A DNA stretch of 34,352 nt, taken from the IMG/VR virus record IMGVR_UViG_2660238524_000004; one strand, given 5' to 3'. The position numbers were made by a program, and so were the translations under genes. The notes beneath the pieces were generated by a model that was not told the origin of the DNA, ran no database searches, and saw nothing but the letters and a program-made list of their open reading frames with translations. The first letter of the stretch is position 1, and each line of letters starts with the position of its first letter. Origin of the DNA: a virus. Its lineage: Duplodnaviria > Heunggongvirae > Uroviricota > Caudoviricetes. Below, in pieces: positions 3,347-27,620 of this stretch.

Positions 3347-3618
3347 GTATTCGTATCGAAATTGACGAACGTTATGTCGTTACCAGTGACAGCTTTCAGT
3401 TTATTCTCCACGAGAAAAAGAGAGCGGAAAGCGGTAAAAATGCCGGTCAGGAATGGCTGGCGGTGGTTGGTTATTACCCGAAATTAAGCCAGCTCGTTTC
3501 CGGCCTGATGCATCACGATATTCTGACCGGAAGCGCAAAATCTTTTGCCGATTTAAACGCGCAGGTTGAGCAACTCAGCAAGCGTTGTTCAGAGGCTTTT
3601 GGCTCACATGGCCGTTAA
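3343..3618 (+). CDS. Hypothetical early protein (91 aa), P2 orf83 position
   Basis: ORF overlapping upstream stop and the start of gene A. Confidence 0.5.
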   Translation: MSIRIEIDERYVVTSDSFQFILHEKKRAESGKNAGQEWLAVVGYYPKLSQLVSGLMHHDILTGSAKSFADLNAQVEQLSKRCSEAFGSHGR

Positions 3619-5893
3619 AGCCTCAGGGCGTTTTGTCCCTCCGTCAGCATTTGCTGCAGGCACCGGTAAGGCGTTTACTGGTGCTTATGCATGGAACGCG
3701 CCACGCGAGGCTGTCGGGCGCGAAAGACCTCTTACACGTGACGAGATGCGTCAGGTGCAAGGTGTTTTATCCACGATTAACCGCCTGCCTTACTTTTTGC
3801 GCTCGCTGTTTACTTCACGCTATGACTACATCCGGCGCAATAAAAGCCCGGTGCACGGGTTTTATTTCCTCACATCCACTTTTCAGCGTCGTTTATGGCC
3901 GCGCATTGAGCGTGTGAATCAGCGCCATGAAATGAACACCGACGCGTCGTTGCTGTTTCTGGCAGAGCGTGACCACTATGCGCGCCTGCCGGGAATGAAT
4001 GACAAGGAGCTGAAAAAGTTTGCTGCCCGTATCTCATCGCAGCTTTTCATGATGTATGAGGAACTCAGCGATGCCTGGGTGGATGCGCATGGCGAAAAAG
4101 AATCGCTGTTTACGGATGAGGCGCAGGCTCACCTCTATGGTCATGTTGCTGGCGCTGCACGTGCTTTCAATATTTCCCCGCTCTACTGGAAAAAATACCG
4201 TAAAGGGCAGATGACCACGAGGCAGGCATATTCTGCCATTGCCCGCCTGTTTAACGATGAGTGGTGGACTCATCAGCTTAAAGGCCAGCGTATGCGCTGG
4301 CATGAGGCGTTACTGATTGCTGTCGGGGAGGTGAATAAAGACCGTTCTCCTTATGCCAGTAAACATGCCATTCGTGATGTGCGTGCACGCCGCCAGGCAA
4401 ATCTGGAATTTCTTAAATCGTGTGACCTTGAAAACAGGGAAACCGGCGAGCGCATCGACCTTATCAGTAAGGTGATGGGCAGTATTTCTAATCCTGAAAT
4501 TCGCCGGATGGAGCTGATGAACACCATTGCCGGTATTGAGCGTTACGCCGCCGCAGAGGGTGATGTGGGGATGTTTATCACGCTGACCACGCCGTCAAAG
4601 TATCACCCGACACGTCAGGTCGGAAAAGGCGAAAGTAAAACCGTCCAGCTTAATCACGGCTGGAATGATGAGGCATTTAATCCAAAGGATGCGCAGCGTT
4701 ATCTCTGCCGTATCTGGAGCCTGATGCGCACGGCATTCAAGGATAATGATTTACAGGCCTACGGTTTGCGTGTTGTTGAACCACACCACGACGGAACGCC
4801 GCACTGGCATATGATGCTTTTTTGTAATCCACGCCAGCGTAACCAGATTATTGAAATCATGCGTCGCTATGCGCTCAAAGAGGATGGCGACGAAAGAGGA
4901 GCCGCGCGAAACCGTTTTCAGGCAAAACACCTTAACCGGGGCGGTGCTGCGGGATATATCGCGAAATACATCTCAAAAAACATCGACGGCTATGCACTGG
5001 ATGGTCAGCTCGATAATGATACCGGTAGGCCGCTGAAAGACACAGCTGCTGCTGTTACCGCATGGGCGTCAACGTGGCGCATTCCGCAATTTAAAACGGT
5101 TGGTCTGCCGACAATGGGGGCTTACCGTGAACTACGCAAATTGCCTCGCGGCGTCAGCATTGCTGATGAGTTTGACGAGCGCGTCGAGGCTGCACGCGCC
5201 GCTGCAGACAGTGGTGATTTTGCGTTGTATATCAGCGCGCAGGGCGGGGCAAATGTCCCGCGCGATTGCCAGACTGTCAGGGTCGCCCGTAGCCCGTCGG
5301 ATGACGTTAACGAGTACGAGGAAGAAGTCGAGAGAGTGGTCGGCATTTACGCGCCGCATCTCGGCGCGCGTCATATTCATATCACCAGAACGACGGACTG
5401 GCGCATTGTTCCGAAAGTGCCGGTCGTTGAGCCTTTGACTTTAAAAAGCGGCATCGCCGCGCCTCGGAGTCCTGTCAATAACTGTGGAAAGCTCACCGGT
5501 GGTGATACTTCGTTACCGGCTCCCACACCTTCTGAGCACGCCGCAGCCGTGCTTAATCTGGTTGATGACGGAGTTATTGAATGGAATGAACCGGAGGTCG
5601 TGAGGGCGCTCAGGGGCGCATTAAAACACGACCTGCGAACGCCAAACCGTCAGCAGAGAAACGGAAGCCCGTTAAAACTACATGAAATTGCACCATCGGC
5701 CAGACTGACCCGGTCGGAAAGAATGCAAATTACCCGTATCCGCGTTGACCTTGCTCAGAACTGTATCAGGCCGCAGCGATGGGAGTTTGAGGCGCTGGCG
5801 CGTGGCGCGACCGTAAATTATGACGGAAAAAAATTCACGTATCCGGTCGCTGATGAGTGGCCGGGATTCTCAACAGTAATGGAGTGGAAATGA
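3608..5893 (+). CDS. A: Rolling-circle replication initiator endonuclease, P2 gpA (about 761 aa)
   Basis: ORF track gives 3566..5893; N-terminus from the ATG at 3608 (MAVKASGRFVPPSAF...) and most of the protein match my recollection of P2 A; HUH-type motif region (PHWHMMLF) and paired active-site tyrosines (YIAKYISK) present. Confidence 0.9.
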   Translation: MAVKASGRFVPPSAFAAGTGKAFTGAYAWNAPREAVGRERPLTRDEMRQVQGVLSTINRLPYFLRSLFTSRYDYIRRNKSPVHGFYFLTSTFQRRLWPRIERVNQRHEMNTDASLLFLAERDHYARLPGMNDKELKKFAARISSQLFMMYEELSDAWVDAHGEKESLFTDEAQAHLYGHVAGAARAFNISPLYWKKYRKGQMTTRQAYSAIARLFNDEWWTHQLKGQRMRWHEALLIAVGEVNKDRSPYASKHAIRDVRARRQANLEFLKSCDLENRETGERIDLISKVMGSISNPEIRRMELMNTIAGIERYAAAEGDVGMFITLTTPSKYHPTRQVGKGESKTVQLNHGWNDEAFNPKDAQRYLCRIWSLMRTAFKDNDLQAYGLRVVEPHHDGTPHWHMMLFCNPRQRNQIIEIMRRYALKEDGDERGAARNRFQAKHLNRGGAAGYIAKYISKNIDGYALDGQLDNDTGRPLKDTAAAVTAWASTWRIPQFKTVGLPTMGAYRELRKLPRGVSIADEFDERVEAARAAADSGDFALYISAQGGANVPRDCQTVRVARSPSDDVNEYEEEVERVVGIYAPHLGARHIHITRTTDWRIVPKVPVVEPLTLKSGIAAPRSPVNNCGKLTGGDTSLPAPTPSEHAAAVLNLVDDGVIEWNEPEVVRALRGALKHDLRTPNRQQRNGSPLKLHEIAPSARLTRSERMQITRIRVDLAQNCIRPQRWEFEALARGATVNYDGKKFTYPVADEWPGFSTVMEWK

Positions 5894-6345
5894 TGGCAAA
5901 AATTCACGAGGTAAAGCTGCACGCCAAATATTTTGACCTTGTGCTGGAAGGAAAGAAACGCGCAGAGTTTCGGAAAAATGACCGTAATTATGAGCGCGGG
6001 GACACGTTGATTTTGCATGAATGGGTACAGGGTGTGTATACGGGGCGAAAGGTTGAAGCCCGGATAACAGATGTTACTGACCTGTCAGACTGGCTGGAAG
6101 ATTATGTCTTGCTAAGTATTGAGCTGCTTAATACAGGCGCATATGAGATTGTGAACTGGAAAGAACTTAGTGAGCGTGGTCTGGTATTCAGAATTAATCA
6201 TGAAATTATGCATCAGCTCGGCCTTTCTGTTATGTATGAACCAGAGACGGGGATGTCTGGCGGGGCAATGGTTGCCACGGATGGAGCATGGAACTATTCA
6301 GATGAACAGATGGAGCGTGCACAGCAAAACGGGTGGCTTGGATAA
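5890..6345 (+). CDS. ASCH/EVE-like small protein (about 151 aa), P2 orf91 position
   Basis: ATG overlapping gene A stop (ATGATG at 5890-5895); N-terminal beta-barrel-like segment (KIHEVKLHAKYFDLVLEGKKRAEFRKNDRNYERGDTLILHEW) resembles ASCH/DUF3850-type domains; fold assignment is an impression only. Confidence 0.55.
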   Translation: MMAKIHEVKLHAKYFDLVLEGKKRAEFRKNDRNYERGDTLILHEWVQGVYTGRKVEARITDVTDLSDWLEDYVLLSIELLNTGAYEIVNWKELSERGLVFRINHEIMHQLGLSVMYEPETGMSGGAMVATDGAWNYSDEQMERAQQNGWLG

Positions 6346-6551
6346 TGCACAGAATACCAGGCGAGATACCGCAACATAAAACTAAAAATATCAAGCTGAT
6401 GGCTATTGTTCACCGTCTACAGCAGATTATGGTTAACGAAAATCTGACGCCTGACGAGCTGGTCGGGTGTGCCGAAATAGTCCGGGATAATTACGGGCGG
6501 TTTAACCATATCGGTCAATCCAGAGTTATGCCACCACCACGCAGACGATAG
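6345..6551 (+). CDS. Small hypothetical protein (68 aa)
   Basis: ATG overlapping the orf91 stop (TAATG); no recognisable motif; could be spurious. Confidence 0.25.
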   Translation: MHRIPGEIPQHKTKNIKLMAIVHRLQQIMVNENLTPDELVGCAEIVRDNYGRFNHIGQSRVMPPPRRR

Positions 6552-6780
6552 AGAACGCCGCCAGTCGTGAAACTTGTTTTCAGGGCTGGCGGGGTTGAAC
6601 AACGAGCGAAGCGAGGCGTTAGTTGACAGTAATATTTTTACTGCGTTGGTGCTGGTTTTTGACGGTTGAAAGGAGTTAGCTCGGAGAGCTAAAGCTAACA
6701 ACTTACAAATATTCAAAAGTAAGCTTCCTGTTGCTAACATAAGGTCGATTTTTTATGTGGATGATGCAAAAAGGATAGCT

Positions 6781-7512
6781 ATGGATACTGTAATCGCTTT
6801 TCTATCACTCGCTTTTTTCGTTGCTTTTTTCATCGGGTTAATCAAACCATCACTGGTGCGGATGCCAAACCGTAAACGTGCAAGTGCGGTTTATCTCGGA
6901 GGAGGTTTTGTATTGAGCATAATTGGTTCAATACTCTATCCAACAGAAAAAAGCCAGCCAGTTGCTAAAACTGAAACATCAACCGTTGCAGAACACCAAG
7001 TCCAAAAAACATTCGAATATGGTGGAAAAACACTCAAGGAATATCGGAACGAGCCAAAGAAAACTCGACACGATATTGTAAATAGTTACATTGATTTTAA
7101 GGAAGTGCCAGTCACCGCATCAGATGCATTTTATGCCTGCATGAGTGAATATACTTTTACCAAAGATGATGAGTTGAAACTCGGTGATGTTCTTGGATGG
7201 TGCTTTAATGATTATGAAAAAGATCCGCAATCACTAAACAATAAAATCAACCTTGATACATTTCAGAGTAATTTTAGTGGTTGGGATGGTTCTTATCGAC
7301 CATTGGAAAAGTTAATTAAAGAGAATATGAACGATGATTCATCTTATAAACATGTGTCAACAGTGTATCATTTAATCCTGAATAAAGACCCTCACGCCAT
7401 TGTGAAAACCACATTTCGCGGTACTAATGCCTATGGTGGTGTCGTGAAGCAAACAATAGCAGCGCGTGTTAATGTGAAAACGGGTGAAATAGTTTCGATA
7501 CTAAATAATTGA
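6781..7512 (+). CDS. Cargo gene 1 at the tin/old-equivalent locus: predicted 2-TM membrane protein with about 180-aa soluble C-terminal domain, unknown function
   Basis: ORF track 6757..7512 (GTG); ATG at 6781 has AGGA 5 nt upstream and is preferred; two hydrophobic segments (VIAFLSLAFFVAFFIGLI and AVYLGGGFVLSIIGSILY); AT-rich relative to backbone; sits where P2 carries tin. Confidence 0.65.
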   Translation: MDTVIAFLSLAFFVAFFIGLIKPSLVRMPNRKRASAVYLGGGFVLSIIGSILYPTEKSQPVAKTETSTVAEHQVQKTFEYGGKTLKEYRNEPKKTRHDIVNSYIDFKEVPVTASDAFYACMSEYTFTKDDELKLGDVLGWCFNDYEKDPQSLNNKINLDTFQSNFSGWDGSYRPLEKLIKENMNDDSSYKHVSTVYHLILNKDPHAIVKTTFRGTNAYGGVVKQTIAARVNVKTGEIVSILNN

Positions 7513-7716
7513 TGGTGATGCCACCGATACTGAAGTTTGATATTGTGTCGGTGGCATTGAAAGATGATCTTAAAGCATGTCTATTTTTTTGTTTTACATG
7601 ATTTTTTTTTGATGTGTTGTGCGTTGTTTTGTTTGTAATTAGAGTGCTTGATGATTTAAATTTCGTTTAAATGTTGTGTGAAAATATTGTGATTTTCTAT
7701 ATCAAGGATTTGTTTC

Positions 7717-8415
7717 ATGAAGTATTGTGGGATAGCTTTAATAATATGTCTTTGCTTGTTTATGTTCGCATTTGGTTTTGTGTTGGGTGGAGTTCAATGG
7801 GCATGGGGCGAGAGTGAAAATAATAGCAAGGTCGCATTTTGGACAATGCTAGGAGGGTGGGTGTCAGGATTGGCTACTCTCGCGGCTGTGGGGGTTTCAT
7901 TATTTACAAGTTATTATGCGATGATTTCAGGCAAAGAGAAAGTTGACGTTGTTTTTGCGCCTATATATACGACCTCTACGGCAAAAAAAGCAGATAAGCT
8001 TTCATTGCAAGATTTGGCTAATATCAAAGTGACAAATTTACACGGTGTGAAGTGTACTATTGTTAATGTTTATATGAAGTTTAGTGATGTTAAGGAACCA
8101 TTAAAGATTAATAACCTTAAACAGGGAGGTAAGCCAATACCTTATACGCTATGTAATATAAGCGATATGTGGGAGTTTGCATTTGGGATGGAGTCAAACC
8201 CTAGATTGAGATTTCTATTGTCAGGGTTGAAATATGAAGGTCGACCATCCTTTAAAAAAGGGCATTTCATCATTGAAACAGCAATGAAACAATACAAGTT
8301 AAAGATGCGGAAAGACTTTCTCTCAATATTACAGAGTGAGTATCAAAGCATAGAGGAAGAATCTAAACGTAACTCAGTTAAATCAGGGTGGTCACGGTAT
8401 AAAAAACTGAATTAA
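7717..8415 (+). CDS. Cargo gene 2 at the tin/old-equivalent locus: predicted 2-TM membrane protein (232 aa) with about 150-aa soluble C-terminal domain, unknown function
   Basis: Clean ORF with its own AT-rich upstream region; hydrophobic segments IALIICLCLFMFAFGFVLGGV and WTMLGGWVSGLATLAAVGVSLF; strongly AT-rich codon usage; occupies the position of P2 old but is far too short to be an Old ATPase-nuclease (586 aa). Confidence 0.7.
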   Translation: MKYCGIALIICLCLFMFAFGFVLGGVQWAWGESENNSKVAFWTMLGGWVSGLATLAAVGVSLFTSYYAMISGKEKVDVVFAPIYTTSTAKKADKLSLQDLANIKVTNLHGVKCTIVNVYMKFSDVKEPLKINNLKQGGKPIPYTLCNISDMWEFAFGMESNPRLRFLLSGLKYEGRPSFKKGHFIIETAMKQYKLKMRKDFLSILQSEYQSIEEESKRNSVKSGWSRYKKLN

Positions 8416-8557
8416 TTACCTAATCAGTTATCATGCATACACAATATGCATGGATTTGCATGCGCAAGCAGCATTCACATTGGTTGTTTTAGTTCAGGAC
8501 TGGTGCTGTTTCGACGTGTTCATGCAACTGCATTAAAACCGACCCATGAAGCGGGCG

Positions 8558-8576
8558 GGCGAGGCGGGGAAAGCAC
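8558..8576. other. P2-type cos cohesive-end sequence (19 nt GGCGAGGCGGGGAAAGCAC)
   Basis: Exact 19-mer that I recall as the P2 cohesive end, at the expected place just beyond the 3' end of portal gene Q. Confidence 0.55.
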
Positions 8577-8745
8577 TGCGCGCTGGCGGTGGTGCTGATT
8601 TTATTTTTTCAGCGTCTGAGCGCGTCGTGACGGCGTTTAGATTGTTCGCCGGGGCGTTGGTGTGTCTGCGGGATGTTTTGTGCGGTGGTGAGCGTGTGAG
8701 GGCGTGATGGCGGGTTGTAAAAAAGCCGCCCGCAGGCGGCGATGT

Positions 8746-9780
8746 TCAGCCGTTGTCAGTGTCCAGTGAGTAGTTTTTAAAGCGGATGACCTCCTGACCG
8801 AGCCAGCCGTTTATCTCGCGGATCCTGTCCTGTAGCGGGATAAGCTCATTGCGGACAAAGACCTTTGCCACTTTCTCAATATCACCCAGCGACCCGACGT
8901 TCTCCGGCTTGCCGCCCATCAACTGAAAGGGGATGCGGTGCGCGTCCAGCAGGTCAGCGGCGCTGGCTTTTTTGATATTAAAAAAATCGTCCTTCGTTGC
9001 CACTTCACTGAGCGGGATAATTTTAATGCCGTCGGCTTTTCCCTGTGGGGCGTAGAGAAACAGGTTTTTAAAGTTGTTGCGGCCTTTCGACTTCACCATG
9101 TTTTCGCGAAGCATTTCGATATCGTTGCGATCCTGCACGGCATCGGTGACGTACATGATATATCCGGCATGAGCGCCGTTTTCGTAATACTTGCGGCGGA
9201 ACAGCGTGGCCGACTCATTCAGCCAGGCAGAGTTAAGGGCGCTGAGATATTCCGGCAGGCCGTACAGCTCCTGATTAATATCCGGCTCCAGCAGGTGAAA
9301 CACGGAGCCGGGCGTGAAAGCTGTCGGCTCGTTGAAGGACGGCACCCACCAGTAAACATCCTCCTCCACCCCACGGCGGGTATATTTTGCCGGTGAGGTT
9401 TCCAGTCTGATGACCTTACCGGTAGTGCTGTAACGCTTTTCCAGAAACGCATTACCGAACACCAGAAAATCCAGCACAAAGCGGCTGAAATCCTGCTGGG
9501 AAAGCCACGGGTGCGGGATAAACGTTGAGGCCAGAATATTACGTTTGACGTAAATCGGTGAGCTGTGATGCACGGCAGCACGCAGGCTTTTTGCCAGACC
9601 GGTAAAGCTGACCGGTGGCTCATACCATCTGCCGTTACTGATGCACTCAACGTAATCCAGAATGTCACGGCGGTCGAGTACCGGCACCGGCTCACCAAAG
9701 GTGAATGCCGCCATTTTCGGGGCGCTGGCGGTCATTGTTTTTGCCGCAGGTTGCGGTGTTTTCCCTTTTTTCTTGCTCAT
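8746..9780 (-). CDS. Q: Portal protein, P2 gpQ (344 aa)
   Basis: Size and sequence consistent with P2 Q; adjacent to and co-oriented with terminase large subunit; start overlaps the P stop. Confidence 0.9.
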   Translation of the reverse strand: MSKKKGKTPQPAAKTMTASAPKMAAFTFGEPVPVLDRRDILDYVECISNGRWYEPPVSFTGLAKSLRAAVHHSSPIYVKRNILASTFIPHPWLSQQDFSRFVLDFLVFGNAFLEKRYSTTGKVIRLETSPAKYTRRGVEEDVYWWVPSFNEPTAFTPGSVFHLLEPDINQELYGLPEYLSALNSAWLNESATLFRRKYYENGAHAGYIMYVTDAVQDRNDIEMLRENMVKSKGRNNFKNLFLYAPQGKADGIKIIPLSEVATKDDFFNIKKASAADLLDAHRIPFQLMGGKPENVGSLGDIEKVAKVFVRNELIPLQDRIREINGWLGQEVIRFKNYSLDTDNG

Positions 9781-25790: not shown

Positions 25791-25983
25791 AGGTATCCTT
25801 TACCGGAATGGCAAAAGATACAGATCAACACACCTGTGAAGTTCCAATAACATTGATGGAGATCACTGAATAACAAAATGAGTCAAAAGTGATCTCCATC
25901 GATGTTATTCAGCGATCTGTTCAAATGTTATTACCCGATCTCGATGGAAGTTATTGAGTGATCTCCTTTCATGAAAATACGCA

Positions 25984-27378: not shown

Positions 27379-27620
27379 TCATTTTTTCCGCTCGTAATAG
27401 ATAAACTCAAAGGTTCTTTTTGAGAGCCTTTGAGTTTCAATCTTACCAATATTACTCACCATTTCTTTAGCAGCAATTTGGGGACTATAACTTCTACTTC
27501 TTGCTGTGAGTTCAACCGATGGATACAACACATTGGCTAAAACGCCCTGTGGGTGATTCATAGTCTAGCGTTTGGACTCCGTAAATTCACAGTTGGAAAC
27601 TGAGCGAGTACAAATCAAGG

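Follow-up and report, generated by a model that had tools for sequence, protein, structure and literature searches.

A hairpin between the orf97 homologue and the cargo gene of a P2-like prophage is probably a decayed copy of an apparently undescribed junction element

In the 34,352-nt stretch of prophage DNA analysed here (the window), the inverted repeat that separates gene 1 from gene 2 forms the stem of a plus-strand hairpin, probably the remnant of a second copy of E, a conserved element of which an intact copy lies upstream of gene 1. The explanation that we favour, with somewhat more confidence than doubt, combines a decayed E after gene 1, co-transcription of the two genes and a role for the hairpin as a barrier between them. 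By itself the hairpin is an unremarkable, eroded stem-loop; what makes it worthwhile is that it drew attention to E, an element that apparently has not been described, covaries strongly and borders a major hotspot of defence systems.

The locus and its inverted repeat

By its gpA and portal matches the window is a P2-like (Peduovirus) prophage, and an ORF on its minus strand (1-996) stands where P2 has int. The region between the replication and portal genes contains the following features.

3566-5893: replication gene A
5857-6345: DUF3850 gene
6333-6551, plus strand: orf72, a small conserved gene (PHROG 11386; 76% aa to PSP3 gp37)
6548-6628, plus strand: intact E, with hairpin 1, the tail GGGGTTGAACAAC, small hairpin 2 and the end GCGAGGCGTTAG
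6781-7512, plus strand: gene 1, homologue of phage 186 orf97 (243 aa from ATG 6781; tblastn 79% aa; PHROG 3403)
7512-7590, plus strand: probable degenerate E (17.3 bits with the E model R1, E about 0.009 on a rough calibration; third-best match in the 34-kb window)
7517-7558, plus strand: hairpin of 14 pairs (7 G-C, 5 A-U, 2 G·U) with a 14-nt loop, -22.9 kcal/mol (RNA fold)
7591-7716, plus strand: AT-rich leader of gene 2, containing the T9 run and the Shine-Dalgarno sequence AAGGA at about 7704-7708
7717-8415, plus strand: gene 2, variable cargo, encoding a 232-aa membrane-type protein (PHROG 16957)
8558-8576, plus strand: cos cohesive-end sequence GGCGAGGCGGGGAAAGCAC, right-hand border of the cargo slot
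8725-8740, minus strand: canonical terminator of the convergent P-Q late operon, GCCGCCTGCGGGCGGC then T6, matching tQ of the P2 record
8746-9780, minus strand: portal gene Q

We take 8558-8576 to be the P2 cos overhang; the P2 record itself lists only the coordinates of cosL and cosR. An identical locus is found in phage P24A7b (LR595887), whose linear record stops at window position 8557, and in seven complete E. coli genomes. A query spanning 6500-8750, with gene 1 inside, matched about 2,180 of 5,426 E. coli genomes, and this gene 2 was present in only seven.

Genes 1 and 2 had been taken for two cargo genes in the preliminary description. Among 54 IMG/VR loci carrying a gene 1 homologue (60-95% aa), however, the gene after orf97 belonged to at least 10 unrelated families, nearly always in the same orientation and with the portal gene next, so that the variable slot is taken up by gene 2 alone. 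Gene 1 is the conserved counterpart of orf97 of phage 186, for which the 186 record notes that 'expression from plasmid blocks 186 infection', and orf72 closes the backbone ahead of the first junction element. By these comparisons orf97 is a backbone exclusion gene, not cargo, and gene 2 alone is cargo. Gene 2 is 27-40% identical at the amino acid level to 14 other copies behind orf97, and its family of membrane-type proteins is present in 16 of the 54 loci. Neither gene had a Pfam, PADLOC or NCBIfam match, their PHROGs being families of unknown function only, and a protein-pattern search of genome contigs with gene 1 gave no matches. The variable slot is the known P2 'tin/old' hotspot, and 1,650 gene arrangements have been reported at this cos-proximal position in P2-like prophages by a study that explicitly left open cargo exchange and expression at the slot (PMC9122126).

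The inverted repeat, the T-runs and the AT-rich spacer were all present as first described. Direct reading gave two perfect 10-bp arms, ATGCCACCGA (7518-7527) and TCGGTGGCAT (7548-7557), with 20 nt between them and the left arm beginning 6 nt after the gene 1 stop (TGA 7510-7512), as well as plus-strand T-runs at 7584-7590 (T7) and 7602-7610 (T9); the GC content of 7500-7725 is 0.29. Perfect inverted repeats 10 bp or longer, with loops no larger than 30 nt, arose in only 0.45% of 2000 dinucleotide shuffles of 7513-7716, so that the repeat is non-random. A repeat finder widened the arms to 13 nt (7518-7530/7545-7557, 92% complementary), and the resulting hairpin has its first base 5 nt downstream of the orf97 stop. 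Since the extra pairs extend the stem beyond the 10-bp arms, the '20-nt spacer' of the earlier account holds as the distance between the arms but not as a loop size, the loop being 14 nt. RNA folding of 7505-7620 yielded a stable structure (z = -4.2; equal stability in 0 of 200 shuffles) with this smaller loop, and the DNA fold of 7513-7562 had z = -6.75. The repeat is the stem of a real and non-random plus-strand hairpin in the 3' UTR of the orf97 homologue.

Structure, constraint and distribution of element E

Most relatives carry directly after the orf97 stop a conserved stretch of about 75 nt, E, which is described by the covariance model R1. Its sequence reads ...AACGCCGCCGGTGCTGAAACTTGTTTTCAGTGCTGGCGGGGTTGAACAACGAGCnnnGCGAGGCGTTAG, beyond which the sequences of the relatives are unrelated. 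RNAalifold gave a 16-pair hairpin with a 5-nt loop followed by the small hairpin 2, and the parts of E comprise an upper stem GAAA/UUUC, the tail GGGGUUGAACAAC, hairpin 2 and the end GCGAGGCGUUAG, the sequence-conserved tail terminating in GCGAGGCGTTAG. The window's intact copy matched R1 with 98.8 bits (E 1e-23) and had an RNA fold of -34.6 kcal/mol.

Base pairing in E has been maintained through sequence change. In an alignment of 30 sequences, 10 of 22 pairs showed compensatory change and 97.6% of cells paired, values reached by 0 of 500 shuffles, with slid controls pairing at 26-49%. When 63 distinct sequences were used, 13 of the 16 hairpin-1 pairs were compensatory (117 compensatory cells) and 97% of cells paired, again reached by 0 of 500 shuffles, with slid controls at 28-45%. 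Hairpin 2 hardly varies, so that its conservation is one of sequence and is not demonstrated by covariation. The non-Watson-Crick cells of the 30-sequence alignment comprised 73 G·U versus 3 A·C, and the plus strand of E folded far better than the minus strand (-20.3 versus -13.1 kcal/mol for the DNA fold of the intact copy), from which it follows that the fold belongs to the plus strand, as RNA or single-stranded DNA. Between divergent locus pairs, identity was 80% in the E core, versus 57% at orf97 synonymous third positions and 31% in the next 80 nt. Judged from these alignments, E is conserved beyond neutral expectation and is constrained as a folded plus-strand single strand.

These observations bear on the proposal of the preliminary description that the repeat is a protein-binding dyad, an operator on duplex DNA that would control gene 2. 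The perfect 10-bp dyad with its spacer fits such a site, and a half-site-like GT(T/G)ATGCCACC recurs at 6525-6535, although 11-nt repeats with one mismatch are common here (14 families in a 2.5-kb region). In the relatives, however, the arms covary (13 of 16 pairs, 63 sequences) and the half-site sequence is not conserved; the compensatory changes and the excess of G·U over A·C cells indicate a single-stranded structure of the plus strand rather than a dyad bound by protein. The stem extension, moreover, relies on G·U (G·T-type) pairs on the plus strand only, which makes the symmetry unequal between the strands, the dyad sits right at the orf97 stop, with 160 nt separating it from the beginning of gene 2, and no regulator gene is adjacent. 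We regard an operator as very improbable, and the data caution against calling the dyad an infection-responsive operator.

An exact 29-nt pattern of the tail was searched across 185,579 species genomes and was found in 29, from Citrobacter, Enterobacter, Pantoea, Erwinia, Serratia, Kluyvera, Mixta and others. All 29 genome matches lay inside P2/186-like prophages, with one or two copies each, and the gpA of E-bearing prophages was often only 31-42% identical to that of the window. E lies on the strand of the upstream gene, 2-17 nt past the stop of tum (or a tum-like gene), orf97 or orf72, which are three unrelated genes; the window's intact copy directly follows the orf72 stop. In phage 186 the same element (U32222, 30342-30422, between orf97 and t95b; 97 bits) lies directly after orf97 on the same strand, and we found no published function for this stretch. 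E was not found in P2, where old and tin are on the opposite strand, or in P4, and this absence led us to reject E as an essential replication or packaging element. Rfam gave no meaningful match for the window, 186 or PSP3 copies, even at E values up to 5-10, and searches of the literature by text and by sequence string returned no description of E.

Three features, the sequence-conserved tail, the strand bias and the persistence of E in 186 without cargo downstream, suggest that some factor recognises E on the plus strand. Several known signals were considered and rejected, the first three by eye on an alignment of E. Against the nut boxA (C/U)GCUCUUUAACAA, the E tail offers only UUGAACAA, 7 of 8 positions of the 3' half, without GCUCU; the window remnant has UUGAAAGA. 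GCTGGCGG has one mismatch to Chi, in addition to which the arms covary, and for the RfaH ops element a key base is mismatched (GGCGTTAG versus GGCGGTAG). A promoter inside E (TTGAAC-N19-TAGnnT) would be poorly spaced, with its last base outside the conserved part; the spacing of CTG-N11-CAG, found in the top of E, is wrong for a LexA box; and the annotated ori nick regions of P2 and 186 are unlike the E tail, which speaks against a secondary nick site of the HUH replication protein A. A trans pairing target for the tail was sought in the window, and no other match was found at up to 3 mismatches.

Two side observations concern the tail. Its invariant part GCGAGGCG (window 6611-6618) equals 8 nt of the cos cohesive end (8559-8566) in the same orientation, for which a back-of-the-envelope chance is about 0.025; the two sites each lie at an edge of the cargo slot. 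In L003/L015/L016 and L033/L034, the gene 2 start codon lies 2-3 nt past E. GAGG of the conserved tail is then at Shine-Dalgarno distance, and in L003 and L033 it serves the start codon as its Shine-Dalgarno sequence; hairpin 2 could therefore hide the site at which ribosomes bind for the cargo gene that follows.

The probable copy behind orf97 and the expression of gene 2

The stretch 7512-7590 is probably a decayed second copy of E. Its placement is that of bona fide E in L002, L003, L006, L013, L015, L016, L024 and L025, and it keeps the GC-rich lower stem of hairpin 1 (model positions 8-19/37-48), with changed bases that still pair. The upper stem is unpaired, the tail is cut to CAUUGAAAG, hairpin 2 is eroded and GCGAGGCGTTAG is absent. 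We consider homology probable rather than proven because similarity in sequence only is marginal: 44-47 of 79 positions are identical to E (56-59%), which is not clearly above shuffles under a crude pairwise scoring scheme. Homology is supported by two observations in other close relatives, which have assorted hairpins after orf97 that share a YTGAA loop-entry motif and, in the L009 type, a hairpin that matches that of the window arm for arm save for a matched 3-nt indel in both arms. The 7517-7558 hairpin could nevertheless have originated independently. In 186 an intact E precedes a separate canonical terminator and cos, without any cargo gene, whereas the window's copy after orf97 has decayed and gives way to an AT-rich leader and gene 2; the window's intact copy (6548-6628) is the homologue of the 186 element, and the 7517-7558 hairpin occupies the orthologous position.

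Two further repeats were recorded elsewhere in the window. At 27397-27476 (plus strand; E model 13.5 bits, E 0.08) an 11-bp perfect repeat, AAACTCAAAGG/CCTTTGAGTTT, forms a hairpin at 27403-27437 that to the eye resembles an ordinary two-way terminator, and at 25855-25900 a 13-bp perfect repeat with a 20-nt spacer, GATGGAGATCACT/AGTGATCTCCATC, is the longest in the window with a short spacer.

A stem placed after a stop codon on the transcribed strand, with 14 pairs, 7 of them G-C, and -22.9 kcal/mol, resembles a Rho-independent terminator, in which GC-rich stems have about 5-14 pairs. The loop of 14 nt differs from the usual size of about 3-8 nt, however, and where a U-tract would be expected to begin within about 2 nt, the stem is followed by UUGAAAGA/TTGAAAGATG, with T7 26 nt and T9 44 nt downstream; consensus E is followed by GGGGUUGAAC, and in relatives genes abut E. 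A terminator scan made no plus-strand call in 7513-7716, while it found both the P-Q terminator (8725-8740) and the control, 186 t95a. The original judgement that the structure is not a compact terminator is thus borne out by the loop size, the lack of an adjacent U-tract and the empty plus-strand scan.

These results also weigh on the idea of two transcription units, in which the hairpin and T-runs would end the orf97 transcript and gene 2 would have a promoter in 7590-7716, possibly with separate regulation. In the L009 type, T7 comes immediately after the homologous hairpin, which makes it a canonical terminator, and the gene 2 beyond it is a different one; this lineage of hairpins can therefore terminate. 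In the window, a second, weak fold of A/U pairs (-10.3 kcal/mol) ends in T9. AT-rich leaders often harbour promoters, and the 126-nt leader is exclusive to this cargo variant, having been found in 7 E. coli genomes plus phage P24A7b; it contains weak -35/-10 candidates (TTGTGC-17-TAGAGT at 7617/7640 and TTGTAA-18-TAAATT at 7633/7657), and gene 2 has its own Shine-Dalgarno sequence. Gene 2 is a separately acquired unit with this ribosome-binding site and AT-rich leader, just upstream of which the T7 run lies inside the degenerate E copy.

The claim that gene 2 probably has its own promoter fared less well. The best -35/-10 pairs in 7560-7725 were equalled or beaten in 61% of composition-matched shuffles, and a promoter consensus scan of 7513-7716 found none, so that a separate gene 2 promoter, though possible within the window-specific 126-nt leader, is unsupported. 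In relatives, gene 2 of the same family begins 2-25 nt after E, which leaves no space for a promoter and makes co-transcription of orf97 and gene 2 the family default; for the same reason E is no strong terminator there. Together with the distance of the T-run from the stem, the large loop and the empty terminator scan, this leads us to consider two transcription units possible, though unlikely.

Some further observations concern nearby sequences. The best sigma-70-like match near the cargo region, TTCAAA-17-TGcTAACAT (6712/6735; 6712-6740, plus strand), has an extended TG, and ranks in the top 0.01% of window scores. Some 40 nt separate it from the ATG of orf97, for which it is a promoter candidate; it may serve gene 2 too. 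In two bovine strains, E. coli E94 (L093) and E92, IS5 has gone in some 17 nt ahead of the gene 2 start codon (about 7700), which cuts gene 2 off from the whole leader and the hairpin; their leader also has a 7-nt deletion and a T-run 1 nt shorter. The LexA box pattern CTGT-N8-ACAG had 10 matches versus 11.4 expected, none of them in 6550-6780 or 7513-7716.

Erosion of the upper stem, tail and hairpin 2, and a score of 17 bits against 99 for the intact copy, would also suit a neutral relic, a decaying duplicate that is redundant beside 6548-6628 and no longer functional. Other group I relatives likewise hold assorted, unrelated-looking hairpins at the same spot, and P2 is viable without any E. 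On the other hand, a perfectly paired 14-pair stem has survived while the rest decayed, and some hairpin stands directly after orf97 in every relative. A comparison with E92/E94 (94% identical) weakly points the same way, none of about 7 intergenic differences falling in the 42-nt hairpin where about 1.6 would be expected by chance. We judge a functionless relic to be decidedly unlikely.

The P24A7b record (LR595887) annotates a CDS at 7512-7601 (plus strand), a 29-codon ORF whose TGATG overlap with the orf97 stop is typical of translational coupling, and the region might on that ground be a small translated gene. The RefSeq annotations of the locus, which list three hypothetical proteins and the portal, do not call it, and neither does the E94 feature table; relatives have non-coding E in its place, and in E92/E94 the T-run shorter by 1 nt causes a frameshift and the ATG is altered, all of which render a coding role extremely improbable. 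A second P24A7b CDS, 6417-6740 (minus strand), likewise uncalled by RefSeq, overlaps the intact E as 7512-7601 overlaps the degenerate one, and both CDSs are probably over-predictions.

The comparisons establish the gene identities and the conservation, covariation, strand bias and position of E, and around them we place the explanation that we hold to be somewhat the more probable, in which the decayed E would serve as an intercistronic barrier. P2/186-like prophages across Enterobacterales bear E just past the stop codon of the final backbone gene, where the cos-proximal cargo slot has its left border. The prophage in the window has kept an intact E upstream of orf97, and its downstream copy would have been stripped of the upper stem, the tail and hairpin 2. 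Both T-runs and the AT-rich stretch would be a 5' leader that arrived with this gene 2, outside E. We infer that orf97 and gene 2 are largely carried on one transcript from a promoter upstream of orf97, in which the -23 kcal/mol hairpin would stall 3' exonucleases or weakly attenuate transcription, leaving the orf97 message more stable or abundant than that of gene 2. The hairpin would act neither as an operator nor as a strong terminator; in 186, the annotated position of the terminator t95b is about 20 nt beyond E.

REP/BIME intercistronic stem-loops, which stabilise upstream mRNA, are a precedent for such a barrier. Like them, the window hairpin is strand-specific and stable, lies between co-oriented genes and could plausibly block 3'-5' exonucleases, giving differential expression within an operon. 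E differs in that it is not dispersed over chromosomes (29 of 29 in P2/186-like prophages), does not have the REP consensus and has a long, sequence-conserved single-stranded tail.

Possible module exchange at the border of the cargo slot

The distribution of E also resembles that of a junction at which modules are exchanged. In PSP3, L083 and L085 it occurs in a two-copy array, tum-E-orf72-E, that resembles a cassette array (copies at 2100-2179 and 2504-2584 in L061, which is PSP3; 5826-5906 and 6223-6303 in L083; 1251-1331 and 1656-1734 in L085), and eight E. coli-type loci have the order E-orf97-E. Homology of the window to PSP3, L083 and L085 extends over the [orf72 + E] unit, from 6345 (orf72 start) to about 6622 (E end). 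A total of 3,439 locus pairs without related sequence on either flank still show 81% identity over the final 30 nt of E, while 180 pairs share only the upstream flank and 15 only the downstream one; homology stops sharply at ...GTTAG.

One reading of this pattern is a DNA recombination junction, with E and its remnant as the patch where [gene + E] modules swap, duplicate and vanish, the hairpin forming in single-stranded plus-strand DNA in the manner of integron attC. The identity island, its abrupt end, the arrays and the persistence of E beside gpA proteins of low identity are in keeping with it. No dedicated recombinase was identified, however (IntI-type enzymes being outside what was scanned), homologous recombination in any conserved patch gives equally sharp edges, the 5' side is unlike the attC inverse core and the A-protein nick site at ori is unlike E. 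The reading is also compatible with an RNA role, the two not being exclusive, and as the explanation of the hairpin we hold it to be improbable.

In integrons, an attC site forms an imperfect hairpin after each ORF, and its inverse core RYYYAAC pairs with the core GTTRRRY. E shares with attC the [ORF + hairpin] modules in arrays and the break in homology right after a GTT-containing 3' end, and downstream start codons sometimes follow 2-3 nt on (L003, L033). The 3' GTTGAAC of E fits the core, whereas its 5' GACAAAC does not fit RYYYAAC, and the break falls after GTTAG, not within G|TTRRRY; the comparison gave no evidence of site-specific exchange. Lambdoid phages offer another parallel in their conserved 'linker' or boundary sequences between modules (Botstein-type modular exchange). 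E is likewise a short conserved patch between unrelated modules at a site of gene exchange, but it differs in its strong base-pair covariation and strand bias, which imply that it is constrained as a folded single strand and is not merely a patch of homology.

Going further, E, with the repeat as its remnant, might be a dedicated cassette-junction site, whose strand-specific hairpin and conserved tail a phage or host factor would recognise as single-stranded DNA or RNA, and which would direct how [gene + E] modules are precisely swapped, stacked and lost at the cos-proximal defence hotspot of P2/186-like phages. Such a site would amount to an integron-like system that lacks the integron integrase; we think this reading improbable. 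A junction role as such would fit E because of its island-like conservation and the [gene + E] arrays, and E as an exchange junction and E as a factor-recognised element would not be mutually exclusive.

For the locus itself, the analysis corrects the gene model, with orf97 as a backbone exclusion gene and gene 2 as the only cargo. The cos-proximal slot of P2-like prophages is among the best-documented reservoirs of E. coli anti-phage systems, and a covarying element of about 75 nt at its left border provides a testable handle on how cargo may be expressed, with E as insulator, stabiliser or attenuator, or on how modules may be exchanged.
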